From positions 2,996,502-3,060,501 of the forward strand of contig CAVZKX010000002.1 of assembly GCA_963775975.1 (NCBI GenBank): 64,000 nucleotides of DNA, in the 5' to 3' direction. Within the stretch, counting starts at the first letter, position 1. Each line of letters starts with the position of its first letter. The stretch is from an uncultured Planctomycetia bacterium (GTDB lineage: Bacteria > Planctomycetota > Planctomycetia > Pirellulales > Thermoguttaceae). Below are positions 2-58,516 of the stretch, piece by piece. Made by a program: the position numbers and the translations under genes. The notes beneath the pieces are model-generated. The model was given only the letters and a program-made list of their open reading frames with translations, was not told where the DNA came from and searched no databases.

Positions 2-112
2 GTCGATCAATGCAGGCCGCATAGCGTTGAAGACGAAGCCGACTTGCGTTTAGAGCTGGATATTCTCCGCGAGCTGCGGGGGCTTCAAGCGGCAGGGAGG
101 GCCGGAAAATGA
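2..112 (+). CDS. 3' end of an upstream element gene (partial, unknown function)
   Basis: Open frame running off the left edge. Its TGA (110-112) overlaps the ATG at 109 (ATGA), as in coupled operons. Confidence 0.3.
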   Translation, partial: VDQCRPHSVEDEADLRLELDILRELRGLQAAGRAGK

Positions 113-1461: not shown

Positions 1462-1600
1462 GCACTACGGAGCACTACGGCAAAAGCACTACGGCAAGCC
1501 TGTCTGCCTGAGTGGTGCGAGCACTACGGCAAGCATGGCCCCTACGGGGCCAATGCGTGTTTGCCGGAGTGCTCACCCCTACACCGCAGAGCACTACGGC
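1461..1600. repeat. Iteron-like direct repeats, five copies of AGCACTACGG(CAAG)
   Basis: Exact 10-mers start at 1461, 1471, 1485, 1520 and 1590, directly after the ATPase stop codon. Confidence 0.65.
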
Positions 1601-1733
1601 AAGGTCGAAATCCGACCCAAGCACCTACTATCCCAAGGTCAGGCGCAAACGTAATGGGCTAGCGATAACAACAGTACCTAAAACCGTACCGACCGATGCC
1701 GCCGGACGGGTGCGGAAACCAACAGCGGCGAAC

Positions 1734-1922
1734 ATGGAGTTTGATATGAAACCGAAACCGATTGATGAGACAATCCCGCTTCACGCTGAGACTGCCGAAG
1801 CCATGAGACCTTGGGAAGAGCGGACCAAGGCCATGCAAGATCATGCCGACGCCCGGCATACGCTGCGGCCGACAAACCCAAAAGCACCGACTGACGATGA
1901 CCCTAACCCCGAGGTGAAATAA
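1734..1922 (+). CDS. hypothetical small protein (element-borne)
   Basis: ATG at 1734 lies inside a longer ORF whose 5' part covers the repeat block. The stop overlaps the next ATG (TAATG at 1920-1924). Confidence 0.35.
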   Translation: MEFDMKPKPIDETIPLHAETAEAMRPWEERTKAMQDHADARHTLRPTNPKAPTDDDPNPEVK

Positions 1923-2422
1923 TGCACGTATCGCAAATTGCTACCCTGTCAAACAAAGAGTGCCGAACGCTCGTCGAGGTCGGCCGTCAACTCGCGCTCA
2001 AACGGATTCATGGCGAGTACGTGGACCCCATTCACTTCACCGAGGTGGTCAATGCGATGGGCGATGCGTACAGACAGGTCTTGGAAATCGAAAAGACCAA
2101 AATCAAGCTTCAGCAGCATCGGGACGATGCCGCCCGAGCCGTTGCGGCGGCTGAAAAGCCCAAGGCCCGGCGCGAGGCGAAACTTGCCACCGCCAAGCAG
2201 CGAATCGCGGAGCTGCAGCGCGAGTTAGAAAAGGCCCAAGCGGCGGCCGTCGCAATCGCCAAGGAAGATGCCGAGATCATCGACCGGCCGCAAAAGCTGC
2301 AAGGGGCGGCCGATGGTACGGCCAGACTTCTCAGCAACTTGGAAGGTTCGATGTGGCGGATTCTCCTACATGCCGAATGGACCGCGCCCGCCGAACTATT
2401 CGAGGAAGGAGCGACCGCCTAA
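1922..2422 (+). CDS. hypothetical coiled-coil protein (element-borne)
   Basis: 166-aa ORF, Ala/Lys/Glu-rich heptad-like middle, TAATG overlaps at both ends. Confidence 0.55.
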   Translation: MHVSQIATLSNKECRTLVEVGRQLALKRIHGEYVDPIHFTEVVNAMGDAYRQVLEIEKTKIKLQQHRDDAARAVAAAEKPKARREAKLATAKQRIAELQRELEKAQAAAVAIAKEDAEIIDRPQKLQGAADGTARLLSNLEGSMWRILLHAEWTAPAELFEEGATA

Positions 2423-2667
2423 TGAGCCAATCGTATGAACCGAAATTGCCCGACCGAGTATTTGGCGAGCGACCGCCGGAAGCGGTCCCGTCGATGAGGC
2501 CCGATTTTGAGCGACAACGTATGTTTTGCGGTCCCGTGGAATCGTTCACAGACAGGCCGGATATTGCCGCGGGCATTGCGCTGGCGGCGGGCCGCGCGGC
2601 GGCACAGGAAAAGGAAATACCGCCTGACGTGCAACAGCGGCAACGTGCGCGATTGGGTTACGACTGA
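2422..2667 (+). CDS. hypothetical small protein (element-borne)
   Basis: ATG at 2422 overlaps the preceding TAA and is in frame with the listed ORF 2353..2667. Confidence 0.45.
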   Translation: MSQSYEPKLPDRVFGERPPEAVPSMRPDFERQRMFCGPVESFTDRPDIAAGIALAAGRAAAQEKEIPPDVQQRQRARLGYD

Positions 2668-2783
2668 CCGCGTAGGGGCGATTCTGAGGGGCTTGGTTTT
2701 CCAAGGTCCAAGACATCGACCCGGCGGCCGATCGTGCAACAGGCGCAATCGTGTGCAACCGAAATTAACGTTTGGAGGTCCAA

Positions 2784-3089
2784 ATGAGCAAACCATCACC
2801 TATGGCCGTTAATGGACGGCGATCGGACGGCACGTTCGCGGCCGGTCACAAGTTCGCCCGCGGCAATCCCCTTGCCCAGCGCGTGCAAAAGCTGCGCGTG
2901 GAGCTTGTCAAGGCCATAGGCAAGGGCGACTTGGCGGCGATCATTTTCAAAATGATCGACCTAGCCAAGAACGGCGACGTGCAAGCGGCGAAGCTTGTTT
3001 TTGACCGCGCGATCGGTGCGCCCGTGGAAGCCGACTTGATCGAACGTCTTGCGCGATTGGAGCAAACCATTGGAGGTGAAACGCGATGA
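2784..3089 (+). CDS. hypothetical protein with N-terminal GNP motif (phage/element small-protein type)
   Basis: GGAGG lies 6 nt upstream of the ATG at 2784. FARGNPLAQ plus helical C-terminus. The stop overlaps the next ATG (ATGA at 3086). Confidence 0.5.
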   Translation: MSKPSPMAVNGRRSDGTFAAGHKFARGNPLAQRVQKLRVELVKAIGKGDLAAIIFKMIDLAKNGDVQAAKLVFDRAIGAPVEADLIERLARLEQTIGGETR

Positions 3090-3529
3090 GCATTGAAAGC
3101 CGAATCCAGAAGTTAGAGGCGGTCGTATCATCCCGCGCCGCGGCGTTTGGAGGGCTTCCGCCCGTGTCACTCTGGCAAGGTGTGGTGTGCGTCGATGATG
3201 AGGCGAATCATATCGACTTTTTGGGCGAACGCTCACACTACACCGGCGCCTTGCCGTATTACCGCGGGGAAGTGGTGACTGAAGACGGACGGCTAAGGGC
3301 GCGTGAAGCCGATGACCCTGAAGACGCGCCGATCTTCGCGCCTGAAGTCCAAGCCCGGTTGAACGCGGAGTATGAGCAGCGGTACTTCACCCACCCTGAC
3401 ACGCCAGATAACCGCACGTGGTATCGAAAGATCGGGTGGGGGTTCTTGTTTGGGGATGAAGAGAGAAGCCCGGCGCGGCGGATGCCGAATCCTATGGTCG
3501 GGCGCGACTGTCCGAAAGATTCCGAGTAA
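3086..3529 (+). CDS. hypothetical protein (element-borne)
   Basis: 147-aa ORF coupled to the previous gene. No recognisable motif. Confidence 0.5.
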   Translation: MSIESRIQKLEAVVSSRAAAFGGLPPVSLWQGVVCVDDEANHIDFLGERSHYTGALPYYRGEVVTEDGRLRAREADDPEDAPIFAPEVQARLNAEYEQRYFTHPDTPDNRTWYRKIGWGFLFGDEERSPARRMPNPMVGRDCPKDSE

Positions 3530-3773
3530 CAGTACCCGAATCGGTACTTTTCCCCTCTTGAAACTTGGGGCGAAAAGGCGAATAATGGAAGTATCAAAAG
3601 TCAGTCTGCCGACTTGTGGCGGACAACAAAGTAAGGTTCTCTCCCATGTTCGATTCTGAGAACACTAGGCAACCCCCTTCCGGCCCGTGGCGAGTGGCAA
3701 CACCGTCCGCGCGGTCTTACTTCCGCGTTGATAGGACCGGGAGGGGCTTGCCCTTTCATGGGAGTTATCGAAC

Positions 3774-5129
3774 ATGCCAAAAATTCACGTGCATGTGGTA
3801 GCGTACCGGGATTGCAAGAACCTCGTCTTGCGGTACATCGACCCGGCGACACGCAAGCCCATTAGGGCGACGAAGTACAAAGACCCGCAGACCAGCGAAG
3901 TATTCGAGACAGGGCAGAATCGCAAGTATGCCCGTAAGCTGGCCGCGCGGTGGGAAGCTGATCTAAATGCCGGCAGGGACCAAGGCCGGTACGCGGCGAC
4001 GTGGGAGCAATTCCGCGAGCGGTACGAAGATGAGGTCGTACCGTCATTGAAAGACAGGACCGGAAATAAGATCGGCACCACGTTCAACCTTATGGAGAAG
4101 ATTCTACCGATGGTTGCGGTGGGGAAGTTGTCTGAGTTGAACGCGGAAACTCTATCTCAATTCCAGCAAGCCTTACGAGCCGGCGGCCGCGCCGAATCGA
4201 CCATCGCGGGCTACCTGGCGCACCTAAAGGCCGCGCTGAATTGGGCGGTTGAAGTGGAGTTGCTTTCCACACGCCCGGCGATTCGGAAACCGCCGAAGAG
4301 CGCCAAGAAGGGCGGCCGGAAGATGAAGGGGCGGCCCGTCACCGGAGAAGAATTCGACCGGATGCTTGCGGCCGTGCCCGCGGCCCTGGCGGAGTGGCGA
4401 CGGCGACGGCGGAACATGGCGCGAGCGGCGGCACGCAAGAAGGGACTCGCGGAACACAAGACGCAAACCGACTCCATCCCCGTGGAAATCGACCCGGCGG
4501 CCGTCGAATCGTGGCGGCACTATCTGCGGGGCTTGTGGCTGTCAGGGTTGCGGTTGGAAGAGTCCCTAAACCTCTATTGGGACCGCGACGATCGACCCCG
4601 CGTTGATTTGAGCGCGGAGCTACCCTTACTGGCAATTCCCGCAGAGTGGCAAAAGGCAGGCCGTGACACGCTCACGACCGTTACACCGGACTTCGCAAAG
4701 TTCCTTTTGCAGACCGCAGCGGACCAGCGGCGCGGCCCCGTGTTCCGGCCAATCATGCCCGGCGGCGTGGCCCGATACGACCAAGCCGGCAAGATGGTCA
4801 GTTTGATAGGCGAACTGGCCGGCGTGAAAGTCTACACTCACCCCAAGACGGGAAAAGTGAAGTATGCCAGCGCTCACGACCTGCGGCGCTCGTTTGGCAC
4901 ACGATGGTCAAGGGTGGTCAGTGCATCCGAGCTTCAAGACATGATGCGCCATGCCGACTATCACACGACGCAGAGTTACTACGTTGACCATCAGGCCGCA
5001 GACCTTGCCCGGAGTATCTACCGCAAGGCCGGCGTCGATCTAGGTACTGTTTTAGGTACTGTTGGGGCTTGTGACGATGATTCGGACGGCGCGGCGATCG
5101 TCGCAAAGTCCAATGGTTTCAACGGTTAA
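3774..5129 (+). CDS. tyrosine-type site-specific integrase
   Basis: 451-aa ORF. C-terminal catalytic signature GLRLEE, HDLRRSF (H-x-x-R) and HADYHTTQSYY (Tyr). Ends 6 nt from a tRNA 3' end. Confidence 0.9.
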   Translation: MPKIHVHVVAYRDCKNLVLRYIDPATRKPIRATKYKDPQTSEVFETGQNRKYARKLAARWEADLNAGRDQGRYAATWEQFRERYEDEVVPSLKDRTGNKIGTTFNLMEKILPMVAVGKLSELNAETLSQFQQALRAGGRAESTIAGYLAHLKAALNWAVEVELLSTRPAIRKPPKSAKKGGRKMKGRPVTGEEFDRMLAAVPAALAEWRRRRRNMARAAARKKGLAEHKTQTDSIPVEIDPAAVESWRHYLRGLWLSGLRLEESLNLYWDRDDRPRVDLSAELPLLAIPAEWQKAGRDTLTTVTPDFAKFLLQTAADQRRGPVFRPIMPGGVARYDQAGKMVSLIGELAGVKVYTHPKTGKVKYASAHDLRRSFGTRWSRVVSASELQDMMRHADYHTTQSYYVDHQAADLARSIYRKAGVDLGTVLGTVGACDDDSDGAAIVAKSNGFNG

Positions 5130-5135
5130 CGACAG

Positions 5136-5208
5136 TACCCCCGGCAGGATTCGAACCTGCGACCAATGGATTAGAAATCCATTGCTCTATCCCCTGAGCT
5201 ACGGGGGC
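5136..5208 (-). tRNA. tRNA-Arg (anticodon TCT)
   Basis: Folded by hand as a 73-nt cloverleaf: acceptor GCCCCCG/CGGGGGT, D arm GCTC..GAGC, anticodon arm ATGGA-TTTCTAA-TCCAT, T arm GCAGG-TTCGAAT-CCTGC. CCA is not encoded. Confidence 0.9.
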
Positions 5209-6586: not shown

Positions 6587-8002
6587 ATGACTGCCGCAAC
6601 ATCCCGCCCTGCTGCCGACACGCCGCGCGAATCCGCCGCGCCGGCCGCTGAAGTCTTGATCGTCGATAACGACCAGGCGCACGCCGAAACTGTGGCGGAA
6701 AGTCTCGATCGCGTCGGATTTCATTGCCACGTGGCCGCGTCCGGCGGCGAAGGGGCGCGGCTCGTCGAAGAGCGCGAATTCGACGTCATCATTACCGACT
6801 TGAAGATGAACGACGTCGATGGCCTGCAAATTCTCGAACTGGCAAAAACGTCCCAGCCCGACACGGAAGTCATTTTACTCACTGGCTTCGGCTCGATCCC
6901 GTCGGCTGTGGAGGCGATGCAAAAAGGAGCCTTCAACTATCTCACCAAGCCGCTGGACATGGGCCAGCTTCGGGCGGTCACGCAGCGGGCGGTAGATAGT
7001 GCGCGGCTGCGGCGGACGAACCTTGAACTGAACCGCCGCCTCGACGAACGATTCGGCTTCGAAGGCGTAATCGGCGACAGCCGCCAGATGCGCGACATCA
7101 TCGAGCGGCTCAAGCGTATCGCCCCGACGAATGCCACCGTGCTAATCCAGGGCGAAACGGGCACCGGCAAGGAGTTGGTCGCCCAGGCCATCCACCAAAA
7201 CAGTCCCCGCAAGAACAAGGCGTTCGTGGCGTTGAATTGTGCCGCACTAAGCGAAAACATCTTGGAGAGCGAGCTTTTCGGCCACGTCAAAGGGGCGTTC
7301 ACCGACGCCTCCGCGGATCGCGTGGGCAAGTTCGAGTACGCGCACGGCGGCACGCTATTCTTGGACGAGGTGGGCGATATGCCGCTGGCCACGCAGATCA
7401 AGCTCCTGCGGGTGCTGGAGAACAATGAGATTACGCGCGTCGGCAGCAACGATCCGATCAAGGTCAACGTGCGGATTCTTTCGGCGACGAACTCGAATCT
7501 GGAAGAAGGCATCGCGGCCGGCACGTTCCGCAGCGACCTCTACCACCGCCTGAAAGTCATCACGCTCCGCCTGCCCAGCCTGCGCGAGCGGAGTCAGGAT
7601 ATCCCCATCCTGATCGATTACTTCCTCAAGCAATTCACCGCCCAGCACAGCAAGCGGATCAAGGGCATGTCGGCCGCCGCGCGGCACCGGCTGATGATGT
7701 TCGACTGGCCGGGCAATGTCCGCCAACTGCGGAATGTGGTCGAGAGCATGGTCGTCGTCGATTACGACGGCCTGCTGGACATGGATGACTTGCCCGAAGA
7801 ACTGGCCGATCCCGCGACGTCCTCCGCGGAGCCGGGAGAACTGCCGCTCTCCGGCCTGGTGGGGCGGACGCTGGTCGAGATGGAAAAACTGTTCATCGCC
7901 GAGACGCTGCGGCTCTCCGGCGGCAATCGCGAACTGGCCGCCGCCAAGCTGGGCCTGGGTGAGAGGACGCTCTATCGGAAGATCAAGGAGTATGAGTTGT
8001 GA
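6587..8002 (+). CDS. sigma-54-dependent response regulator (NtrC/AtoC family)
   Basis: Receiver domain ([14 protein letters not shown]), AAA+ sigma54-interaction core ([23 protein letters not shown]), C-terminal Fis-type HTH ([21 protein letters not shown]). Confidence 0.9.
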
Positions 8003-30545: not shown

Positions 30546-30726
30546 AGCCGCGGAGCGGCAAAAGAAAATAGCCAGGGCGCAAGCCCCTGGCGACGAAGAA
30601 CCACGATTCGGTAGCCCCGGAGGGGCGAAACTTGACTTACTGTCGCCGCTCCGCGGCTGTGGTATCCAATTCGACATATCCCAGGGGCTTGCGCCCCTGG
30701 CTATTGTCTATCGCCGCTCCGCGGCT
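30546..30726. repeat. Composite nested inverted-repeat element filling an intergenic region
   Basis: AGCCGCGGAGCGGC (30546) with complements GCCGCTCCGCGGCT at 30645 and 30713. CCAGGG..CCCCTGG hairpins at 30568-30591 and 30680-30704. Confidence 0.8.
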
Positions 30727-46818: not shown

Positions 46819-48676
46819 CTAGTGACCGGGCGGGGCGCTGTCAGGCAGGGACGGGTCGGGCCGCGGGGATGGCCTGCCACGAGGCGGGGAAGATCCGCGT
46901 TCCCCTCCACCGCGCGGATTGAAACGCCTGCCCTCACCGCCGCCCGCACTTGGTCGATCAGGCTCCTTCGTCGCGTCATTCCAGTCCTTGCTCTCGCCCA
47001 TCTCGTCGTGGATGACCAACTCGCCATTGTCGCTCAGAACGAGCATTGCGCCGGGGGGATGGGGGCTCTTTTCCCGATCTCGCGGAGACAAGTATTCGCC
47101 GCCTCCCGTAACGTCCACAAGAATGGAATTCGTTTCCGCTTTGGGTTCTGGAGTCGTGCTATCTTCGGATTTCGGGTGCCAGGTGGCACCCTCAAAGGTA
47201 GAGTCGATCGGCGTGCCTCGGAATATAGTGGCCTTTTCGGTCCACTTATTCGCACCGGTATCCTTATCCCAGATGATTATGCGGACCTGGCCAGTGATTT
47301 CAGCGGGGCTCGGGCTTTTTGCCGGTTCAACGGTGCCCGCGATCAGCCGGTTGTCGCTTGGCAATCTGGTTGACTGACAGGCATTCGACCAGCCCTTGTC
47401 ATCAATCTTCAAGTCGGCGACTTGGTTTTTCGCGTCGGGCTGGTCCTTGCCCGGCGTGACGGATAACGTGCTTTGACTGCTCTGCTTAGGATCAAAAAGC
47501 GCCGATTCCGGAAGGCCGTTGTTCGGATTTTGCAGCAGCGGAAAAACCCGGTAGGTGTATTGCTTGCCCGGTTCTACGTCGAAGTCGAAATAGCGCAGCA
47601 AATAATACGGAGGAACTTGAGCCGCTTCGTCAACGGACTTATTATTGGTGGCCTCATCCCTGGCAAGGACAGTTTTTTTACCGAATAGTCCATTGCCGCC
47701 GCCTTGATCGCTGCCGGGGCGGACCGCATCTGGCGGGGGACGCCGCAGATTCTGGCGATAAGCGCCCTCGCCACGTCCCGACGGCAACCTTCCGCGAAAA
47801 CCTTCGCCTGCACCGGGTCGAATTGTTGGAGGTTGGCCCGCTCCACCGCCGCCTAGCGCCTGATCTCTCTCTTCCTTCGGAATGAGCTTGATCTCCGCCG
47901 GATGAGCCACCTCGTCGCCCCATTCGCCGGTTGTCCGCGGCGGCAATTGCGACGCCAAGCCCGGAAAAATGTACTTGGAATCAACCACTTCCAGCGAGCC
48001 GCCGCTCCATTTTTCCAACTGGTGGCGTAGGAAATCCGCGTCGCAGATCGTTACCGCCTTATCCCAATTCGGCTCGCTTGCGGCGCCGGGGACAACCTCC
48101 GCGCTGTACCAGGAACCCGACGTATTCCGGCGTGTCGTTGTTGCCCTCGAAACCGGCGGTCTCGAAATTCCTCTTGTACTCGGCCAATTGTTTGGCGTAG
48201 GGGACCAGTCCAGTGACGACGACCCAGCGCTGGCCGACCGTGCCGGCGGCGTTGGCGTTGCCGCTCAGCGCGCCGCGGCCCGCGACTGCCCGCAACTCCT
48301 CGACGGGAATAACTGCCGGTGTTCCGCGCGGGTTCTTCGGCGCAATGACCGCCGGATCCATGACGGCGTCAAACTTGTATTTGCCGGGATCTTCAGGCAT
48401 TTTGAATCGCTCGATCTCGCTGGCGTAGGCCGTAATAGGCGCTTCGGTAGCGGGCGACTTATTCAGGGGACCGGTCACCATGGTCTTTTGCGCCGCCTGG
48501 ACCGCATCGGAGAGGCTCTTCGGATCCTTCTTATAGCTATCGTTGGCTTGCAGCATGACGGCGCTATAGGTGAAGTAGAGGAACAACAGGCCGACGACGC
48601 CGATCACGATCTTTTCGGTGTGGTCGATGAAAAACTGCTTGATCGCCTTCGCGTCGAGTTTGCTTTTTTTCTTCAT
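46819..48676 (-). pseudogene. large single-TM envelope protein, third gene of the PilM-like operon (split into two frames as assembled)
   Basis: ORFs 48059..48676 (MKKKSKLD plus TM) and 46819..48018. The downstream frame is open and coding-like across the gap (..AEVVPGAASEPNWDKAVTICDADFLRHQLEKW..). The upstream ORF ends in Arg-rich junk. Confidence 0.6.
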
Positions 48677-48776
48677 GGACGTGCTCCTTGCGGTTTCCGG
48701 TACACTCCAAGTGATTGCCCATCGCAGCGGGAGTGTGCCGGACACATGAGCGTGCGATTAGTTGGAATGAAATGGT

Positions 48777-50491
48777 TCATTTCGCTTGCGTTGCGGTTGG
48801 CGGAGTTGCCGTCCCGGCAGGTGCGGCCGGGCTTGCTGCCGGTGTTGCCGGCGCAGCGGCGGCCGCAGGCGCCGCCCCAGTTGCCGTTGTCCCCGTCGCC
48901 ACCGCGCCGTTTGTCGACTGTGGCGTGGGCGGGTTGTAAATGTAGATGACGCCTTGAATCTCGACCGGAACCGGCGGAGCACTCGGGTCCGCTGACTCTT
49001 CGCTGTAACTGAATTCGTTGTTCTGAGACGCGTTGCCGGCGCCCTGCCCGCCCAGCCGATTCATCATCCCGTGCCCGCCGAACCCGGACATCCCGCGTCG
49101 GCCGCCTGCCGGCGGACGCCCCAGTTGCGGAACGGCGGCCGCGCCGGCAGGAGCGTCGCCGCCCGTGCTACTTCCGTTGACGTCAAATGCGGGCGGCTTC
49201 TCGGCGAGAATCCGCACGGAGCGGACATCGATCCGCATGTTCGAATTGGCGCACTCGACCAATAGCCGTGGAATGGCCCTTTGTTCCATGACCACCCGCA
49301 GATTAACGGGCATCATGCGGAACTCCTGGTTCGGCTGTTGCTTGGGATCGGCCAGCGGCTTGCCGTTGTTATCTACATAGCGGCCGACAAGCAGCGAGGC
49401 CGCCGAGCCGCCGCTGGTGGCGCCGGCGGCCGCACTTTGAAAACCCATGCCGCGGCCGGCGCTTGGACCCGGTTGTATCGTCGGTGCTTGGGTGCTTGCC
49501 GCCGAACCGCCATCGCTCGACAATACGAACACCGCGTTCTCGCAGGCAGCCCAGCTCTGCGCGGCCTCGTTGCCGATCTCCAATGCCTGAATCTCCTTGA
49601 TCCGGGCGTCCTTGTGGGTGCCCGGCGATTGATAATTCTTCGCACTATGCTTGGGATCATTCCCCACATCATTCGTATTGCGAATGACTTTCAAAAGCGC
49701 CTCGTAGACCCAGACATTTTCCTGGGCAACGATGACATCCGGCGTGGTTGGGATGTCGTTCCAATTGCGGAAATAGTCCATCAAGTTGCCCGCGTTGGCC
49801 CAGTCGACAACGCCTTTCGGCTGTTTGGAGGGATCGTCGCCTTGCATAGGACCATTCCGACCGAAGCGCTGGCCTTCACCCCCGCCCGCATTCGATCCAG
49901 GCTCTCCCGATGTTCGCAACTCGATCATCTCAAAGAGGCTGGGAAAAACGTCTTTGATCTCGTCGCGGTATTTCAGGCGATAGACTTGCTTTAGTTCGTA
50001 CTGATCCTTGTTGGGAGCGTCCGCCGGCGGTGATTCGATGTCCTCGATCTTGTGGTTCCAAACCTTCCAAAAATCTTCTTCAAAGCGAACCTGTTCTTCG
50101 TGGTTGTTCGGATAGATGGGCGGCAATTCAAAGGTCGTGCGCTGGCCGTCAAAGAGCTGCTCGGCGGCCTTGGATACGTTCCCGGTAAGGCTCTCGCTCG
50201 GGCTTTTGATTCCGGATGCCTTGATTACTTCGTCCGACGCGCCGGCAAACTCGCCGTCCGGCGCAGAACAACGCCTTTGATGAACGTCTCACTTGGATGA
50301 TCGCGTTTACCGGTGATCGCAGACATCGAAGTGAACTGGCCTTCGATCTCCTTTTTGCACTTGTCGTACTGTTCCGCCCTATCGGCGGTGGCCATGTACC
50401 ATGTGCCGAACGTGATGAGGACGATCAAAGACAGGAGAATCCAGAAATGGTACTTCTTGAAGACTTCAAGAGCTGCGCGGACTTTTTCCAT
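48777..50491 (-). pseudogene. large single-TM envelope protein, second gene of the PilM-like operon (split into two frames as assembled)
   Basis: ORF 50225..50491 (TM helix HFWILLSLIVLITFGTWYMA) plus ORF 48777..50126, whose frame is open upstream to 50288 (..PDGEFAGASDEVIKASGIKSPSESLTGNVSKAAEQLFDGQRTTFE..). Confidence 0.6.
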
Positions 50492-50686
50492 GATTATCGG
50501 CTCCGTCGTAAGTTAATTGATACTATCGTTAGGGCTTTGCCGCTGGCGCGGTAGCCGCCGGCACAACTGCCGGCGCAGGCGCGGCTGTCGCTGTCGCCGC
50601 CGTTCCACCGGTCGCGCCGGCAACTTGATCTCCGGCGGACTTTGGCTGCCAAATGAATTGCACGCGGAACTGGAAACGGTCGACTG

Positions 50687-52720
50687 TTACTTTCCTTTCC
50701 TCATCGGGCGCGCCCCGCCAATACCGCCGAGCGTCATGGGGCCTGGCGCCAACGGACCGTGCCCAGGTCCAATGTTGTTGCCCGGACCGAATACGGGATT
50801 TACGGAGTTCTCACTCCGCTTCGGCCCCGGAATGACAATCTCCTCTTTGTCGTTGGGCGCGGGCTTCACAAGTACCGGGTAGGAAACGCCCAGGTCGTGC
50901 ATCTCCTTGCTCGCAAGCTTCGTCAACAGCGTGCTGTAAACGTACTGTGTGCCGACTTCCTGCTGTTTCTTGTCATTGTGGAAATGCTTGCCGTATATCT
51001 GCACGATCATGCCCGGTCCCGTAGGGCCATCGGCTGCGGCTATTCCACCAGTGCCAGCACTTCCCGACGATGCCTCGGGCGAATCGCTCAAAAACGGGGC
51101 GCCGGGTTGGCCGGGAAATGGATGGTACCACGGCTTCACCAGCGCGAACCACTTCGATGCGTCGTCGATCTGCTGCGAATCGACGTTCGTTATCAGCAGT
51201 TGCTCTCGATCCATAATCTCTTTGCGCAGCTTCTCTGGATCGGTCGAACTGGGCATCGGCTTCGCATGAATTTTGCCGTCTTTGCCCGGGTAGGGCGGCA
51301 GGCACGTGTCGATCGCCGTCAGGAACTTCAGCCACTGCGAGCGGTTTTGCAGGTTTTTCACCAGGCGGTCGCCTTTGCCCGTAGTCTCCTCGAATTTCTT
51401 CTTGGCCGCTTCATAGTCGCCGATCAGTTGTTTTGACTTGCCATCGGCCGCCTTCGCCTCTCCTTCCGGCTTCTCCCAAATCGCGGGCCGCACCGCATTG
51501 AATTGCAGGGCATAAGCCGCGTAGCTGACCGTGCAGGCCAGCATGACCATCGCCGCCGCCGCCACCGCCCACGGCTTCTTGCGGCGGATCAGCCGGTCCA
51601 TCGAGATTTCCTTCGGCAGCAGGTTCGTCTTGAGGCCGCCGCTCTGAAGGCCTTGCAGGCACAGCCCGTAGCAGACGCCGAACGAGAGGATATTGTCCTT
51701 GAACGCCGGCGTGGCCAGCACCTCCGCGCCCACCAGGCCGCGGAACGACTCGACCCGCTCGATTTCTTCGCCGAGACTCTGCGCCAAGTAGCGCCGCAGT
51801 CCGGGCAATTTGAAGGCGTTTCCCATCGCCACCACGCGGCCGATCTTGGCGTTGCGGTCGAGGTTGCTGAAGAATCCAATCGAGCGCTGCAGCTCCGTCT
51901 GCAAATCGTTGAACACCGGCCGCATCGCCTGGAACACCGCCTTGGGGTCCTGCGCCGTCGTGGCATTCCGCTTCAAGTGCTCCGCCTTGGCAAACGTGAG
52001 CTTCATCTCCTTGGTCAGCGACTTGGTGAAGTGATTGCCGCCCAGCGGCACGCTCCGCTGCCAGACCTTGAACCCGTTCGTCACGACGAGGTCTGTCGCG
52101 TCCGTGCCCAGCGAGATTATCACAATCGATTCCGGCGGGTCGTCCGGATCGTAGGCCTCCGGGCTGGGTAGGTCTTGCAGCATGTCGAAGACGACATAGT
52201 TGTAAAGCGAGAGCGGCGCCAACTGCACGATATCGACTTCGATGCCCGCCTTGACGAACGGGTCCAGCGCCCGAAAAACGGCGTCGCGCTTCATGGCGAA
52301 AAGCCCGATTTCGGTCTCCAGCACGAAGCCCGATTCCTCGCTTCCGCCGCCTAGCCGCTGGTAGTCCCAAATCACGTCGTTCAGATCGAAGGGGATCTGT
52401 TGCCGGGCCTCGTAACGGACGATGTCCGGGATCTTTTTGGCCTCGACCGGCGGCAACTTGATGAATCGGGCCAGGCCGCTCTGGCCAGCCACGGATACCG
52501 CCACGCGGTCGTTGTGAACCTGGTTCCGAGAAAGGAACTGTTTCAGGGCGTCGGCGATCAACTCGGCTGGATTGGCGTCGGGCTGCGTCAAGATTTTGGG
52601 ATACTCGATGTAGTCGAACGCCTCGACCACGATCTTGTCCGGGTCATCGTGTGCCCGGCAGCGCATCGCCTTCAACGCGCACTGGCCAATATCAATTCCC
52701 CATACGCTACCGCTTGCCAT
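50687..52720 (-). CDS. pilM: PilM-like actin-fold protein fused to a TM and periplasmic region
   Basis: WGIDIGQCALKA, IVRYEARQQIPFDLNDVIWDY, then TM WAVAAAAMVMLACTVSYAAYAL. The native C-terminus probably continues in another frame to 50529. Confidence 0.85.
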   Translation of the reverse strand: MASGSVWGIDIGQCALKAMRCRAHDDPDKIVVEAFDYIEYPKILTQPDANPAELIADALKQFLSRNQVHNDRVAVSVAGQSGLARFIKLPPVEAKKIPDIVRYEARQQIPFDLNDVIWDYQRLGGGSEESGFVLETEIGLFAMKRDAVFRALDPFVKAGIEVDIVQLAPLSLYNYVVFDMLQDLPSPEAYDPDDPPESIVIISLGTDATDLVVTNGFKVWQRSVPLGGNHFTKSLTKEMKLTFAKAEHLKRNATTAQDPKAVFQAMRPVFNDLQTELQRSIGFFSNLDRNAKIGRVVAMGNAFKLPGLRRYLAQSLGEEIERVESFRGLVGAEVLATPAFKDNILSFGVCYGLCLQGLQSGGLKTNLLPKEISMDRLIRRKKPWAVAAAAMVMLACTVSYAAYALQFNAVRPAIWEKPEGEAKAADGKSKQLIGDYEAAKKKFEETTGKGDRLVKNLQNRSQWLKFLTAIDTCLPPYPGKDGKIHAKPMPSSTDPEKLRKEIMDREQLLITNVDSQQIDDASKWFALVKPWYHPFPGQPGAPFLSDSPEASSGSAGTGGIAAADGPTGPGMIVQIYGKHFHNDKKQQEVGTQYVYSTLLTKLASKEMHDLGVSYPVLVKPAPNDKEEIVIPGPKRSENSVNPVFGPGNNIGPGHGPLAPGPMTLGGIGGARPMRKGK

Positions 52721-53288
52721 GATGGATTTCTCTCCTTAAGTGGACGCATGGCGGATCGACCGCATCGTCCACGATCGCACGTTCAACTGCCGCGCTATGC
52801 AGTCGCGCACTGCGCAGCGTCAAGCGCCTGATGCTCTGTTTCCGCACTCCTTCTGCTGTTCCTGACGGCTCCCATGCCTCAATAAGGCGCATCCAGAGTG
52901 GACCGGAAAAGAGCCATCTGCCTCTACTACATAATCTATCGCAACCGGGCAGCGGGTGTCAATCAAAAATCGCCCACGCAGAACACGAATTTATACCAAC
53001 CCGCCGTTGACAATAGCCCGGCTAGTGGGGGGTCCGACAGCGGCGGCTATACACTCTTAGGCGTGCGACGTTCGAGCGCCTTCAATTCCGTTCCTTCGCT
53101 GCAATCCAACTACTCGTTACCGTTGGAAAGAGGCTGCCCGGCGTTCGGCGGGACGTTGGTGCTGTCCCGCCACCCGCGCCGAAATTTGTCCTACTATTCC
53201 TATGACCCGTTAGAGGAAATCAGGCCCCGCCGCCAGTCGAGTCGAAAAAATGACTGAACGGCGGCTGCGGCCGCGCTAACCAAGAGAT

Positions 53289-54266
53289 ATGGCAACGACC
53301 TGTGCGGCAGAGAATGTAGTGGAAAATGGCGCCTTGATGGCCGTCGGCGTGGAGACGCTGCGCACATCGGGCGTGCTGCCGTTCGATCTCTACTTCTACG
53401 GTGACGGACCGAAACGCCCAGTTCTTTACCGCGAAAAGACACTGCCGGTTGGCGACGACGATCTGGCTCGGCTGTTGGAGCGCGGCGTGCGGACGCTGTA
53501 TATCCTGCAAGGCGAGTCCGCTTCGTATCGCGAGTATCTCCGCGAGACTCTGCTGGCCAATCCGGACATTCCGCCCGTGCAGCGCTACCAGGTGCTCCGC
53601 GAGGCGACCCGCTCCGTGCTCAGCGAAGCCTTGCACAAGGGCGACAACGAGACGGCTGTCCGCGTGACAAGCGAACTCAGCGACGGCCTGGTACAGACCG
53701 TTTGCAATTCGCAAGCCGTGCTCAACGACCTGCTGCGGGTGATGTCGCACGATTACAGCATCTTCACGCACGCCGTCAACGTGGCCACGCATTGCCTGCT
53801 GCTGGCCCGGCAGATAGGCATCAGCGGCGATCAGGAATTGATGCAGATCGGCCAGGGGGCGCTGCTGCACGACATCGGCCTGCAGGGCGTGCCGCGGAAT
53901 ATCATCGACAAGCCGGAAAAGCTCACCGAGCGCGAGCGGCGGATCGTGCAGCAGCACACGACGCACGGCTTTCAGGAGCTTTCCCGCCGCCCCGAACTGA
54001 GCTGGCCGCAGTTGATGATCGTTTACAGCCACCACGAGCGCTGCGACGGCCGCGGATATCCGGTGGGACTGGTGCGCTCGGAAATCCACGAATACGCGCG
54101 GATCTGCGCCATCGCCGACGTATATGAAGCTTTGTGCCGCGACCGTCCCTATCGACGGGCATCGCGGCGGAACGACGTTTTGGAGTATCTCGACCGCCAG
54201 GCGGGCCGAGCTTTTGACGAGGAGATGACGCGATGCTGGATAGCGGCGGTCGGCAGGAAGAAATAG
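53289..54266 (+). CDS. HD-GYP domain protein (c-di-GMP phosphodiesterase type)
   Basis: HAVNVATH, LLHDIG, HHERCDGRGYP. Confidence 0.88.
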   Translation: MATTCAAENVVENGALMAVGVETLRTSGVLPFDLYFYGDGPKRPVLYREKTLPVGDDDLARLLERGVRTLYILQGESASYREYLRETLLANPDIPPVQRYQVLREATRSVLSEALHKGDNETAVRVTSELSDGLVQTVCNSQAVLNDLLRVMSHDYSIFTHAVNVATHCLLLARQIGISGDQELMQIGQGALLHDIGLQGVPRNIIDKPEKLTERERRIVQQHTTHGFQELSRRPELSWPQLMIVYSHHERCDGRGYPVGLVRSEIHEYARICAIADVYEALCRDRPYRRASRRNDVLEYLDRQAGRAFDEEMTRCWIAAVGRKK

Positions 54267-54672
54267 GGCGGTGGATCTTTTCGCTGCCCTGCCAGGTGCA
54301 GTTTCCGCCCAAGCTCCGCGAGGAGTTGGAACGGACCGGCGCGGTCCCCGTGCCCAGCGACGACGTGCGGCGGCACCGCCGCATCTACTGCCGCGGCGAA
54401 AAGCACCGCGCGGCCCTGGAACTTCGGCAGTCGCTGCCGGCGCTTTCCCGGCCCACGGCCTGGCATTGCGTCTACACGAGCGATTTCTCCAAGAGCGGTT
54501 GCGGGTTCATCCACAGCGCGATCCTCTATCCGGGCGAACGGCTGCGGATGGTTCTCTTGACCGTGCGCAGCGGCAAGTTGAAGTGGCCTGGTGCCGGCGG
54601 TTGGACAAGCATTGCTATGCCGTCGGCGGGCGATTCGTGGCAGACCCCGCTGGCGCGGTCGATGAGGAGTGA
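54233..54672 (+). pseudogene. PilZ-domain protein (one-nucleotide frame break as assembled)
   Basis: RRHRR ... DFSKSGCGF in the frame of ORF 54233. The C-terminal strands EVAWCRRLDKHCYAVGGRFV* lie in the frame of ORF 54271..54672. Confidence 0.6.
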
Positions 54673-54676
54673 CATT

Positions 54677-56137
54677 ATGACCACCGGACCAGCAGACGCC
54701 GCGGGCCAACTGGAGCAATTGCTTCAAGGTTTGGCCATGCTGGCCGAAGACACGGACTCGGACGCGCCTGTGCACGACCTGGCCCCCTCGACCGCCGCGT
54801 CGCGGCCCGCCTTGGCCCGCGACGGCGAGTTGACCGCCGGCTCCGATTCCGAAGCAATTCCGGCCGCGGGCAATCGATTTCTTCCCGCCGCTCCGCGGAG
54901 CCTGGAGGAGACGGGCATCCGCCAGTCTGATATCGAGAGCATCATCCTCCGCCTGATGCGGCTTCGCGGTACGGCGACGGGCATGGAGATCGCGCAGCAC
55001 ATCGGCTTGCCCTTTCCGCTGACGGAGAAGGTGCTCCACTCGCTTAAGAACGAACGCTTGCTCGTCTTCCGCAACTCCGCCCAGCTCAGCGATTACCTCT
55101 ACGAAATCACCGATCAGGGCCTGGAGCGCGCCGGACAGTTGTCGGCCCAGTGCGGCTATTGCGGGGCCGTGCCCGTCGCGCAGGACGACTACACGGCGAG
55201 CGTCGCCGCACAGTCGCTCTGCCACACCCGCCCCTCGGCCGAAGCCGTCCGCCGCGCGCTGGCCGATCTTACCGTCGATCGGGAAATGATCGCTCGGCTG
55301 GGCCGCGCGATCGCTTCCGGCTGGGGGCTTTTCCTGCACGGTGCGCCGGGCAACGGCAAGACGAGCATCGCCGAGCGCATCACGGCGGTTTTCGGCACGA
55401 GCATCTGGATTCCACGCGCGATCAACGTCTGGGGCGAGATTGTCCGCATTTATGACCCGAGTTGCCACGAAGAGCTTCCACTGGCCAAGGGCGAGCAGAT
55501 CATCGATGACGAGCGGCTCGACCACCGCTGGGTCCGCATCCGCCGGCCGACGATCGTCGTCGGCGGCGAATTGACGATGGACAATCTGGAAATAACCGTC
55601 AACAAAGATACGGGCGTCGCCGAAGCGCCGCTGCAAATGAAGAGCAACTGCGGCACGCTCGTGATCGACGACTTCGGCCGCCAACGCATCTCTCCGCAGA
55701 AGCTGTTGAACCGCTGGATCGTGCCCCTGGAAGAGCGGCATGACTATCTCGGCCTGCCGAGCGGGCGGAAGATCCGCGTGCCTTTCGACCAGTTCATCGT
55801 CTTTTCAACGAACTTGGAGCCGCGGGACCTGGTGGACGAAGCGTTTCTGCGCCGCATCCCGTACAAGATTGAAGTCCAAGACCCGACGCCCGAACAATTT
55901 CGCGAACTATTCGAGCAGACGTGCCAGCGGCAGGGCGTCGGATTCGACGCGGGGGCGCTGGATTACTTGCTCGCCGAGCACTACGCCGCCGGCCGGCGGC
56001 CGATGCGATTCTGCCATCCCCGCGACCTCGTGCATCAGATCGGCATCTTCTGCCGCTTCCGCAAATTGGCGCCCGCGGTAAGCCGCCAAGCCATCGACGC
56101 CGCGGCGACGGATTATTTCTCCGTGATGGGGACTTAG
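54677..56137 (+). CDS. AAA+ ATPase with N-terminal winged-helix-like region
   Basis: ATG 4 nt after the PilZ stop codon. Walker A GAPGNGKT, Walker B LVIDDFGRQ, FSTNLEPRDLVDEAFLRRIPYKI. Not a GspE/PilB-type ATPase. Confidence 0.75.
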   Translation: MTTGPADAAGQLEQLLQGLAMLAEDTDSDAPVHDLAPSTAASRPALARDGELTAGSDSEAIPAAGNRFLPAAPRSLEETGIRQSDIESIILRLMRLRGTATGMEIAQHIGLPFPLTEKVLHSLKNERLLVFRNSAQLSDYLYEITDQGLERAGQLSAQCGYCGAVPVAQDDYTASVAAQSLCHTRPSAEAVRRALADLTVDREMIARLGRAIASGWGLFLHGAPGNGKTSIAERITAVFGTSIWIPRAINVWGEIVRIYDPSCHEELPLAKGEQIIDDERLDHRWVRIRRPTIVVGGELTMDNLEITVNKDTGVAEAPLQMKSNCGTLVIDDFGRQRISPQKLLNRWIVPLEERHDYLGLPSGRKIRVPFDQFIVFSTNLEPRDLVDEAFLRRIPYKIEVQDPTPEQFRELFEQTCQRQGVGFDAGALDYLLAEHYAAGRRPMRFCHPRDLVHQIGIFCRFRKLAPAVSRQAIDAAATDYFSVMGT

Positions 56138-56570
56138 ATCGGGTTGGAATGGCGTAGGGTGGAACCGGGTTTCACAATGCCCGTCAAGAGTCCGACCGCA
56201 CCGAAGGTGCGAACCATACCAGCCCAGGCCAACGGCCTGGGCATGATCGCCCCGCGATAATTTAGGGCCGAAGGTCCGATTGATCCAAGCAAATCCCCGC
56301 GGCGCCGCGAATTAGCTTCCGAGGGCTTCGGAACGCTCGCATGATCCCGTTGCGACTGACCGACGCGAGCGCAGAGCCAATCGCTATAAGCCTCCGAGGC
56401 CGCATGCGTTTAATCTAGACGGCAACAAAAAACGGCGGAGTTGCGATATGTCACAAATGCCCCCGAAAATTCTTTAAGTCCTTGTCCGGCACGAAGTTGG
56501 GAACAATCCGAAAAGAATTCTTCTATAATCGCATAGCGCATCTAGCAATATATATATGGGAGTGTGTACA

Positions 56571-56880
56571 AGAGTTGAGAGGTGAGAGTTGAGAGTTGAG
56601 AGGGGAGAAAGGATGAAGGCGGAAGGATGAAAGGCAAAGGTTCAATGTTCAAAATCCGCAAATCCCCAAATCCCTAAATCCCAAATTCCCCAAGACCGCA
56701 TCCGTGTTCAATCTGCGTTTCATCCGTGGCCCCGTCCGGCTTTCGTGTGCTTCGTGTATTTCGTGGTTTATTAAGACAATCCAATAAGTGAAAAGAAGTG
56801 TCCATGAGATCCTATGAGTTTCTATGCATTCCTATGCGCTTTCTATGCGATTCCTATGACGTTTCTATGGGGTTTCTATA
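56571..56880. repeat. Mosaic of five different micro-repeat blocks in an ORF-free 1.1-kb region
   Basis: GAGTTGAGAG block (56571-56603), GGATGAAGG block (56610-56633), AAATCCC block (56651-56692), TTCGTGT block (56740-56766), T(C/T)CTATG block x7 (56808-56880). Confidence 0.85.
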
Positions 56881-57256
56881 TAGATTTGGCGCGGTTGTTC
56901 ATTAAACGCACGCCACTTTCCGCGGGAATTGACGACATGAGGCCTTCAAACAAAAAAATGGCGGGCACTTGTCGCGACCATCCGTGACCTGCCGCTTCCA
57001 AGCCGGATCAAAGCAGTTTCAAAGCGAAATCAAAGCAGTTTCATGTTGACATTTCAGCCGCAAAGAATGTGGCCGGCCGGCGGACGGAAGTCTCCGACTC
57101 GTTCCAACGAACCAACCACTACAATCGTTAAAGCTGGCACACGTTATTCTTTCACGTTGGGCAGGAACTGTAAGGTAACTTTTGAAGATAGGCCGCGCCA
57201 TGTGCCTCGTGAGCGCGCTTTGATCGGCGTTTATTCGGGAACTTAGAGAATTCATC

Positions 57257-58516
57257 ATGCAGGTCACGTTTATCGCTTGTCCCTTCAAGACCTCCTACGG
57301 AGCGGCTTCAGAGGCCCTCAAAAAAGCCCTCGAAGCGAAGCTCGTTGAAAAGCAGCTTGGCTCGAACGTCGAGTGGGTGGCGTCCAATTGCGGCTGCGGC
57401 GACGACGTCGAGGTCAGCCGGCAATTCCAGATCCCCGGCTGCAAATACTTCGATGCGATCACGATTACCGACCATCCTTCGCGAAACCCTTGGAAGCTCA
57501 GGATCAAGCTTGCGGCGAGGAAGTTCTTCTACTACTTCCGCGCGCGGAAGTATCACGCCTTTTCCGCCGGAGCGGAAGTCGTGAACTTCCAGCAGACGTT
57601 GAACGCTTACGGATCGACCGTGCTCTTCCACTGGTTAACCCAACGATCGCCGGCCGCGCGGGTGGTCACGATCCACGAGTTGGACCGTCACCAGTTGGAA
57701 TGCCCCGAGAGCAATCAAGCATATAACAAGGCCGACGCGATCATCGTACAGCAAGGCGCCATGCGAGATCAGCTCATCGGCCTCGGCGTCGATCCAAACA
57801 GAATAGAAATTGTTCTTCACGGGTCCGACCTGCCGGTAATCGACGAGAATCGCCCGCGCGACGGAATCATGTATTACTGCGGCCACCATCCCTTCCGAGC
57901 CAAAGGGCTGGAGTCGGTTTTCCAGGCGATGGCGACGCTCAAAAAGCGTCTCGGCACGAAGGCTCCGAAACTGAAAGTACATGCGTATTTGAGCGGCGAA
58001 GACTTGACGACCTTGAAGGGCATGGCCGCCCAGGCCGGTTTGGCAGACGACGTTAAATGGCTCAACCAGCCTTCGACGGAGGAACTCGTTCGCGAGTATG
58101 GTTCATCGCTGCTGTGCGTGCTGCCCTTCACGGGCAGTTTCGCCGGCCTGGCCGCGGCCACTGCGGCCGCCGTGGGACTGCCGATCATCGCCACGAAGCA
58201 CGCGGGAATTATCGAACACATCGGCGAAAATGGAATCTGGCTAGATAGCGACACGGCCGAGGAAATCGCGGCCCAGATCGAACGGCTGCTCGGCGCCGAT
58301 GCGCTCCGCCGCGATCTGTCCAAGCGCTTGCGGCAGCACGCGGAGCAATGTTTAAGCTGGGATACTGTCGCCGAACGCACGCTTGCGGTCTACGAACGGG
58401 CGATCGCGCGGAAAATGGGACAAAAGTGCTGTCGCAACTCGCAGGCAAACGCGCGGTTAACGGCCGACGACGCCGAAATGTGCGAAGAAACGTGCGGTTG
58501 CGCGGTCGCGGATTGA
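57257..58516 (+). CDS. glycosyltransferase (GT-B fold, family 4-like)
   Basis: C-terminal GLPIIATKHAGIIEHIGENGIWLD (E-x7-E-like region). Confidence 0.8.
   Translation: MQVTFIACPFKTSYGAASEALKKALEAKLVEKQLGSNVEWVASNCGCGDDVEVSRQFQIPGCKYFDAITITDHPSRNPWKLRIKLAARKFFYYFRARKYHAFSAGAEVVNFQQTLNAYGSTVLFHWLTQRSPAARVVTIHELDRHQLECPESNQAYNKADAIIVQQGAMRDQLIGLGVDPNRIEIVLHGSDLPVIDENRPRDGIMYYCGHHPFRAKGLESVFQAMATLKKRLGTKAPKLKVHAYLSGEDLTTLKGMAAQAGLADDVKWLNQPSTEELVREYGSSLLCVLPFTGSFAGLAAATAAAVGLPIIATKHAGIIEHIGENGIWLDSDTAEEIAAQIERLLGADALRRDLSKRLRQHAEQCLSWDTVAERTLAVYERAIARKMGQKCCRNSQANARLTADDAEMCEETCGCAVAD

Follow-up and report, generated by a model that had tools for sequence, protein, structure and literature searches.

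The window analysed here is the whole of a 64,000-nucleotide (nt) stretch of contig CAVZKX010000002.1, from an uncultured Planctomycetia bacterium of the Thermoguttaceae, and our subject is a compact group of three plus-strand genes within it, referred to below as the trio, which encode a predicted HD-GYP phosphodiesterase, a PilZ receptor and an AAA+ ATPase. The trio lies beside a divergently oriented PilM-like operon. Its features, with protein lengths in amino acids (aa), are as follows.

53289-54266, plus strand: HD-GYP phosphodiesterase (predicted), 325 aa; Bd1817-like domain at the N-terminus, HD...HHExxDGxGYP catalytic domain complete
54233..54672, plus strand: single-domain PilZ receptor (predicted), 146 aa after restoring one missing G near 54560
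54677..56137, plus strand: orphan AAA+ ATPase, 486 aa, with a disordered N-terminal tail followed by a winged helix, an AAA+ core and a lid
54923..55144, plus strand: MarR-like winged helix-turn-helix domain of the ATPase, residues 83-156, as predicted with AlphaFold and Foldseek
55316..55876, plus strand: AAA+ core of the ATPase, residues 214-400, placed by invariant residues and the model
53176..53210, plus strand: conserved non-coding motif GAAAttTGTCCTACTATTCCTATGACCC, 84-99 nt 5' of the HD-GYP start, a candidate promoter or operator of the cassette

When the coordinates and translations were checked, the three genes and all of the motifs cited in a first-pass annotation of this DNA were found where it had placed them, with HHERCDGRGYP in the HD-GYP protein, RRHRR and DFSKSGCGF in PilZ, and GAPGNGKT and LVIDDFGRQ in the ATPase. 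The PilZ ATG at 54233 creates a 34-nt overlap with the end of the HD-GYP gene, and the PilZ stop codon (TGA, 54670-54672) is followed 4 nt further on by the ATPase ATG at 54677. The overlap and the short gap therefore stand as that annotation described them, but the PilZ frame itself is broken in the sequence as assembled (see below). On the other side, the PilM-like gene starts at 52720 on the minus strand, leaving a divergent gap of 568 nt before the HD-GYP gene. A scan of this gap against Rfam gave no match to a riboswitch or any other RNA, and scans of it for sigma-70 promoters and terminators yielded hits at the level of chance. The core of the conserved motif within the gap (CCTACnATTCCwATGA) is present in one copy in the window, against 0.05 copies expected by chance. 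The core is exact in the window and in the related loci L001, L002, L082 and L083, carries one to two mismatches in L085, L088 and L090, and always lies 5' of the HD-GYP gene. It is thus conserved at eight loci and accompanies the trio even where PilM is absent.

The HD-GYP protein matches the Pfam models HD_5 (95 bits, cut-off 27.2) and HD (55 bits), and its translation contains LLHDIG, HHERCDGRGYP and IADVYEALCRDRPYRRA, which places it in the HD-GYP phosphodiesterase class. In the PDB its sequence matches that of PmGH (4MCW, E 9e-27), an active enzyme to which the likeness spans the catalytic domain with its motif complete, and second best that of V-cGAP3 (5Z7C, E 5e-25). The alignment to Bd1817 (3TM8) runs over residues 17-283 and takes in both the N-terminal and the HD domains, while Pfam DUF3391 was undetected in the N-terminal 154 aa. 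Judging from its domain and catalytic motif, the protein would be expected to hydrolyse cyclic di-GMP (c-di-GMP). Its architecture fits the Bd1817 type as presented in sections of Galperin and Chou (bioRxiv 10.1101/2021.11.05.467447), and no HD-GYP operon with an overlapping PilZ gene and an AAA+ ATPase gene was found in the literature searched, which included those sections.

The PilZ protein carries the RxxxR motif as R46-R50 (RRHRR) and the DxSxxG motif as D84-G89 (DFSKSG), both of which are invariant in five sequences. Of 52 full-length homologues in its subfamily, 47 have [DN]xSxxG, and RxxxR is kept in every full-length sequence inspected, those scrambled by frame breaks aside. From these motifs the protein is predicted to bind c-di-GMP. 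The subfamily is small and uniform, comprising 67 clusters among 5.8 billion proteins, nearly all of about 146 aa, and many of them come from contigs equal in length to those that gave ATPase matches. A metagenome scan with PilZ patterns produced only six loci, mostly short ones.

Because the PilZ frame is broken, the open reading frame (ORF) list as assembled holds a single ORF of 634 aa at 54233-56137, which is composed of the PilZ N-terminus, an out-of-frame linker and the ATPase, and the window has no intact PilZ ORF. DNA and protein alignment with four intact 146-aa homologues located a 1-nt deletion at about 54560, where the window reads 'acc-gtg' and the homologues 'accggcg'. Restoring one G gives LLTGAQRQVEVAW, the same as in the homologues. 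The repaired protein scores 23.8 bits against Pfam PilZ (PF07238), just over the cut-off of 22.5, and neither of the two raw frames has a Pfam PilZ match. A programmed frameshift was considered and rejected, as there is no slippery site and the homologues with the extra G are read in one frame. It could be supposed that the frameshift is real and that the cassette is decaying in this genome into a PilZ-fragment/ATPase fusion or a pseudogene, and the absence of one G near 54560 from the assembled window, together with the 634-aa read-through ORF, is what such decay would produce. We consider this improbable, however. The apparent single-base frame breaks at 48101, 50250 and 54560 all lie within about 8 kb, and the genes broken near 50250 (572 aa) and 48101 (617 aa) are whole in the relative L097. 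Related assemblies are also full of breaks: in L090 the HD-GYP gene is in four pieces and the ATPase gene in three, L005 has breaks too, and in L097 PilM is split. The breaks across the window and these three loci point to an indel-prone long-read assembly. Furthermore, the PilZ break is a loss of 1 nt in a GG run with no slippery site, and the rest of the gene is conserved, with a nonsynonymous divergence (dN) from L082 of 0.01. Since the neighbouring genes and the related assemblies carry similar breaks, the PilZ break is probably, if unproven, an assembly indel.

Fold and family of the ATPase

The AlphaFold model of the ATPase has a mean predicted local distance difference test (pLDDT) score of 72, with a disordered tail at residues 23-65 and a helical lid. 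In this full model the winged helix at residues 83-156 is predicted with a pLDDT above 90, and when the domain was modelled alone its Foldseek matches were HpaR, ZitR, MepR and OhrR (probability 1.0, E about 1e-3). This structure search of the N-domain bears out the winged-helix-like region that the first-pass annotation had suspected there and assigns it to the MarR family. In NCBIfam, the winged helix has weak matches to MarR_EPS and SufR. The AAA+ core carries Walker A at residues 222-229 (GAPGNGKT), Walker B at D331-D332, sensor 1 at N379 and the arginines R392/R393, and in the model it has beta-rich inserts between Walker A and Walker B and before sensor 1. Walker A, the two Walker B aspartates, N379 and R392/R393 are invariant in 19 sequences of 50-93% identity. 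Walker A and B, sensor 1 and an arginine finger, on an alpha/beta core that leads into a helical lid, place the protein in the AAA+ superfamily.

No named family within that superfamily was recovered. The ATPase had no match above cut-off in Pfam, NCBIfam or PADLOC, including every individual Pfam AAA family, and attempts to name it through these databases or by PDB sequence search were abandoned, as just the Walker A and sensor fragments match. A PDB profile search returned the classic AAA proteins VAT, Msp1 and spastin (E about 1e-7), with alignments confined to the surroundings of Walker A and to the sensor region. In Foldseek, the best match to the whole model was the hexamer 8P49 (E 1.5e-9, probability 1.0), followed by MCM, dynein and RuvB. 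This best structural match is the Pyrococcus furiosus protein Q8U0N8, an uncharacterised hexameric ring ATPase, which is without a Pfam assignment and has a flexible N-terminal domain (bioRxiv 10.1101/2023.06.09.544317). The likeness comes with an identity of 12-14% and low template modelling scores (TM-scores, 0.26-0.36), and 8P49 is archaeal and has no known link to c-di-GMP.

Several known classes were tried and rejected. The absence of a GspE/PilB signature, claimed in the first-pass annotation, was confirmed, as the T2SSE model (PF00437) gave zero matches even at E<=10, and no PilB/GspE protein was among the top 50 Foldseek matches listed. As a sigma-54 enhancer-binding protein the ATPase scores 11 bits (E 0.3) with Sigma54_activat (PF00158), against a cut-off of 20.2; a genuine sigma-54 activator in the same window, at 6587-8002, scores 242 bits with the same model. 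The Joint Genome Institute (JGI) label 'ATPase with chaperone activity' prompted a comparison with MoxR, Mg-chelatase and ComM, in which AAA_5 (16.7 bits, cut-off 22), Mg_chelatase (14.7 bits, cut-off 20.3) and bpMoxR (11.9 bits, cut-off 27) aligned with the Walker A region only. The anti-phage ATPase IetA/IteA was rejected with a score of 26 bits for NF042959 against a cut-off of 510 and no protease partner (IetS) in the operon; the PADLOC IetA matches to the ATPase are weak (E 7.6e-8) and partial, being made up of Walker A and sensor segments.

The family to which the ATPase belongs is large, with at least 8,000 homologues and at least 595 matches in species-representative genomes, and in a full HMMER scan the clusters (50% identity) numbered 1,220 at E<=1e-30 and 2,948 at the looser E<=1e-10. 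Besides Planctomycetota, it is found in Wallbacteria, Acidobacteriota and Dehalococcoidia, and in the one non-planctomycete neighbourhood examined the ATPase gene is alone. On the 4.29-Mb contig that includes the window there are at least two other paralogues, and each shares 60% identity with the window ATPase. Members of the family are usually encoded by stand-alone genes. Clustering of the neighbours at 81 loci revealed no conserved partner, with no gene family present in more than 13 loci, and the commonest neighbours, dCTP deaminase and endonuclease III, have housekeeping roles. Seven loci had an HDOD gene as a neighbour, and seven a Ser/Thr kinase gene. In some members the winged-helix AAA+ core is fused at its N-terminus to a further domain, FHA in P0246, P0250 and P0274 and HDOD in P0191, and P0329 has a weak PAS match at its N-terminus. 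The FHA and HDOD fusions, together with the HDOD and kinase neighbours, suggest that the family is a general signalling output module with interchangeable inputs.

The trio as a unit and its PilM-like neighbour

The order HD-GYP, PilZ, ATPase is repeated in at least nine other loci, among them L001, L002, L082, L083, L084, L085, L090 and L092, and across these eight named loci the identity of the ATPase to that of the window ranges from 59% to 93%. The 34-nt overlap between the HD-GYP and PilZ genes is exact wherever gene calls or ORFs permit it to be measured, that is in L001, L002, L082, L083, L092 and the ATPase-less L091, and the gap from PilZ to the ATPase is 4-5 nt where gene calls exist. 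Because the same genes recur across loci in the same order and with the same overlap, the arrangement is not due to chance. Of 89 ATPases placed in a neighbour-joining tree, the 11 with a link to HD-GYP or PilZ all belong to a single clade, and the remaining 78 have neither gene nearby. No hidden PilZ genes were detected by tblastn 5' of these other ATPases, where the upstream ORFs have no consistent size or position. The trio is a real conserved operon that is restricted to one clade, and it is probably co-translated. The packaging into one unit of an enzyme that would degrade c-di-GMP, a PilZ receptor whose binding motifs are intact and an ATPase of non-canonical type, to which the first-pass annotation had drawn attention, is upheld by the recurrence of both the order and the overlap. 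From this conserved three-gene unit, a c-di-GMP-controlled ATPase is therefore a reasonable proposal.

It might be argued that HD-GYP and PilZ are instead a general c-di-GMP pair with a target elsewhere, and that the ATPase is merely co-transcribed with them through shared regulation or genomic hitch-hiking. The overlap between HD-GYP and PilZ is indeed the most invariant feature of the unit, and L091 has these two genes with the same 34-nt overlap and, in place of the ATPase, a second PilZ. Moreover, 23 positions set the ATPase clade apart, but they are spread across the winged helix, the inserts and the lid, and were rejected as a docking patch since they form no single obvious one. A target elsewhere nevertheless seems doubtful to us, as the ATPase is found directly 3' of PilZ in eight trio loci despite the range of identities, with a gap of 4-5 nt wherever genes have been called, and the HD-GYP- or PilZ-linked ATPases all belong to one clade, which is what a single acquisition followed by retention would give. 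PilZ and the ATPase also remain paired in the JGI contig of P0005, where HD-GYP is a 99-aa ORF. The second PilZ gene of L091 (4733-5119), in the usual ATPase slot, is a different one that encodes 128 aa and has a clear Pfam match.

The first-pass annotation had gone further and suggested a role for the trio as a c-di-GMP-gated energiser of the neighbouring PilM-like machine, in which PilZ would pass the signal to a motor ATPase of non-canonical type. Coupling of PilZ adaptors to pilus ATPases is indeed known from Xanthomonas and Pseudomonas, and no PilB-type ATPase or other pilus gene was found among the window ORFs scanned against Pfam. The window, L082 (93% ATPase identity) and the JGI contig of P0005 (84%) have the trio divergently next to the PilM operon, and in L083 (86%) the two are still divergent, although 11.2 kb apart with an RHS island between them. 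When co-occurrence was checked across loci, however, the suggestion did not survive, and we now regard it as very improbable. Adjacency is limited to relatives with an ATPase identity of at least 84%, and five trio loci (L001, L002, L085, L090 and L092) are without PilM within about 9-10 kb; nor is there a PilM gene near the HD-GYP and PilZ genes of L091. Against the 67 PilZ clusters stand at least 6,867 PilM-like proteins of the long type, most of them from Thermoguttaceae and other Planctomycetota, so that nearly all PilM machines must be without the trio. The ATPase family, for its part, is mostly stand-alone, reaches beyond Planctomycetota and has at least two further members in the window's own genome, and the predicted fold of a winged helix with an MCM/dynein-like AAA+ core is not that of a secretion ATPase. 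The adjacency of the trio and PilM is best read as shallow synteny. In L001 and L090 the trio stands beside NfeD genes, homologues of which lie 25 kb away in the window.

The PilM-like operon of the window (46819-52720, minus strand) encodes PilM (677 aa), two large low-complexity proteins without a Pfam domain, and then PTPS and an iron-sulphur (Fe-S) biosynthesis gene. PilM passes TIGR01175, and it matches the model of Akkermansia Amuc_1101 at E 1e-55 but below the cut-off of that model. The insertion between the trio and the PilM operon, of about 11 kb (L083 1-7083 and L097 1-5600, contig_112745), contains an RHS-repeat protein of 1,143 aa and three genes without a Pfam domain (347, 232 and 461 aa). 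On the other side of the trio, L083 has a Dnd phosphorothioation cluster.

Proposed c-di-GMP control of the ATPase

With modest confidence, we favour the view that the trio is a self-contained, lineage-specific c-di-GMP input cassette on an orphan winged-helix AAA+ ATPase, and not part of the PilM machine. In the proposed mechanism, the stand-alone PilZ would bind c-di-GMP through RxxxR and DxSxxG and, in one of two states, would dock on the ATPase and alter its oligomerisation, ATP turnover or target binding, a step that is suggested by the conserved operon. The HD-GYP enzyme, if active as its motif predicts, would hydrolyse c-di-GMP nearby and so reset the switch. The ATPase would be the output, probably as a hexameric remodeller, and its predicted MarR-type winged helix would put it on DNA or nucleoprotein. 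Starting from the domains, motifs, operon conservation and clade restriction found here, we infer the binding of the ligand, the contact between PilZ and the ATPase, and the target of the latter. Other members of the ATPase family would take their signals by fusion to FHA or HDOD, and possibly PAS, while the trio clade would use a PilZ adaptor and a dedicated phosphodiesterase. A wider reading, which we put forward only tentatively, is that the ATPase represents a large unnamed family of signal-controlled remodellers or regulators into which lineages plug different inputs, some as fused domains (FHA, HDOD and possibly PAS) and some as neighbouring HDOD or Ser/Thr kinase genes, with a free-standing PilZ and a dedicated HD-GYP giving c-di-GMP control in this planctomycete clade.

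Several points weigh against the cassette as we have described it. The module is not indivisible: L005 lacks PilZ and has the ATPase gene directly after the HD-GYP gene, L091 lacks the ATPase and has a second PilZ after HD-GYP and PilZ, and on the JGI contig of P0005 PilZ and the ATPase are accompanied by HD-GYP cut to an ORF of 99 aa. Some HD-GYP enzymes are specific for cyclic GMP-AMP (cGAMP), and V-cGAP3, the second-best PDB match of the window protein, is one of them. DNA binding by the winged helix of the ATPase is suggested by a modelled fold, and if the deletion in the PilZ frame is real, the module may be inactive in this genome.

PilZ-adaptor control of pilus ATPases is known from Xanthomonas and Pseudomonas, in the form of FimX-PilZ-PilB and of RpfG (HD-GYP)/GGDEF/PilZ with PilT and PilU. 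Like the trio, these systems combine a c-di-GMP enzyme, a small single-domain PilZ and a hexameric ATPase (the hexamer being a prediction for the trio), and in them, as we propose for the trio, PilZ is a separate adaptor protein and not a domain within the target. They differ in that their ATPase is PilB or PilT of the GspE family, whereas that of the trio is a winged-helix AAA+ protein without a T2SSE signature. Furthermore, their type-II PilZ is without the c-di-GMP-binding motifs that the trio PilZ keeps, and their genes are not arranged as one overlapping operon as those of the trio are. Another likeness is to regulators of the FleQ/VpsR type, in which an AAA+ ATPase with a DNA-binding domain is under c-di-GMP control, as we propose for the trio. 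In FleQ, however, the AAA+ domain itself binds c-di-GMP, the protein is a member of the sigma-54 activator family and its helix-turn-helix is C-terminal, whereas the trio ATPase has an N-terminal winged helix and an insignificant Sigma54_activat score, and would leave sensing to the separate PilZ. A PilZ-adaptor cassette is thus a known kind of signalling, and the proposed winged-helix AAA+ target is what would be new.

To our knowledge, c-di-GMP signalling is almost unstudied in Planctomycetota, and we know of no winged-helix AAA+ protein of this kind among the PilZ targets. If the wider reading given above is correct, the trio would be the first pathway from PilZ to an AAA+ effector with a DNA or nucleoprotein target and no pilus link, and the motif 5' of the cassette would be a candidate autoregulatory site. 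The trio would also provide a testable way into the function of the 1,220-cluster ATPase family, offering a small-molecule input, a candidate adaptor and a candidate DNA motif. Removal of the unsupported link to a PilM machine of the Planctomycetes-Verrucomicrobia-Chlamydiae (PVC) type should stop annotators from calling the ATPase a pilus motor.

Mobility and flanking sequence

The trio could also be viewed not as a housekeeping signalling unit but as a cassette of an accessory, mobile or defence type. Homology between loci begins and ends sharply at the borders of the cassette, and the neighbourhoods differ, with NfeD in L001 and L090 and the Dnd and RHS genes in L083. Between the window and L082, the trio shows somewhat lower synonymous divergence (dS, 0.14-0.39) than its flanks do (0.46-0.95), but this comparison is ambiguous, and the flank values are inflated by frame errors and low-complexity sequence. 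The weak PADLOC matches to IetA (E 7.6e-8) would also be in keeping with a defence role, yet they span only the Walker A and sensor segments of the ATPase. No integrase, transposase or terminal repeats flank the trio, and synteny is generally low in these genomes. The idea of mobility is weakened further because the PilM operon of L083 lies on the same contig beyond the RHS insertion, 11.2 kb from the trio, which makes the L083 context an insertion into the same locus. On balance, a mobile or defence-type origin appears most unlikely.

A non-coding element of about 216 nt is shared by the window (56719-56929) and L083 (7653-7865), and contains six to seven 11-nt TTTCTATGCGn repeats that end in TTTCTATATAG; in the window this repeat array is at 56810-56880. 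The two copies of the element are 73% identical over a 216-nt BLAST match, and lie on the 3' side of the trio in the window but on its 5' side in L083. They hold the only two arrays of this repeat in 1.5 Mb of sequence examined, and the core of the element, TTCCTATGA, resembles the conserved motif 5' of the HD-GYP gene. The 1.1-kb stretch of the window in which the element lies (56138-57256) is gene-poor, and the bin at 56001-58000 has a G+C content of 54%, compared with about 60% elsewhere. The same stretch holds tandem arrays of AGAGTTG (five copies), AAATCCCC (five copies) and ATCAAAGCAG (three copies), with no match in Rfam.

Elsewhere in the window, a match to the Rfam small RNA Acido-Lenti-1 is found at 30681-30726 on the plus strand (48.9 bits, gathering cut-off 37), in what is a planctomycete-like genome. 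The left end of the window carries a minus-strand tRNA gene (5136-5208) directly next to a phage-type integrase gene (3774-5129), with an AAA_25 protein encoded at 109-1461. This combination of tRNA, integrase and AAA_25 genes at 109-5208 is the usual signature of an integrated element.

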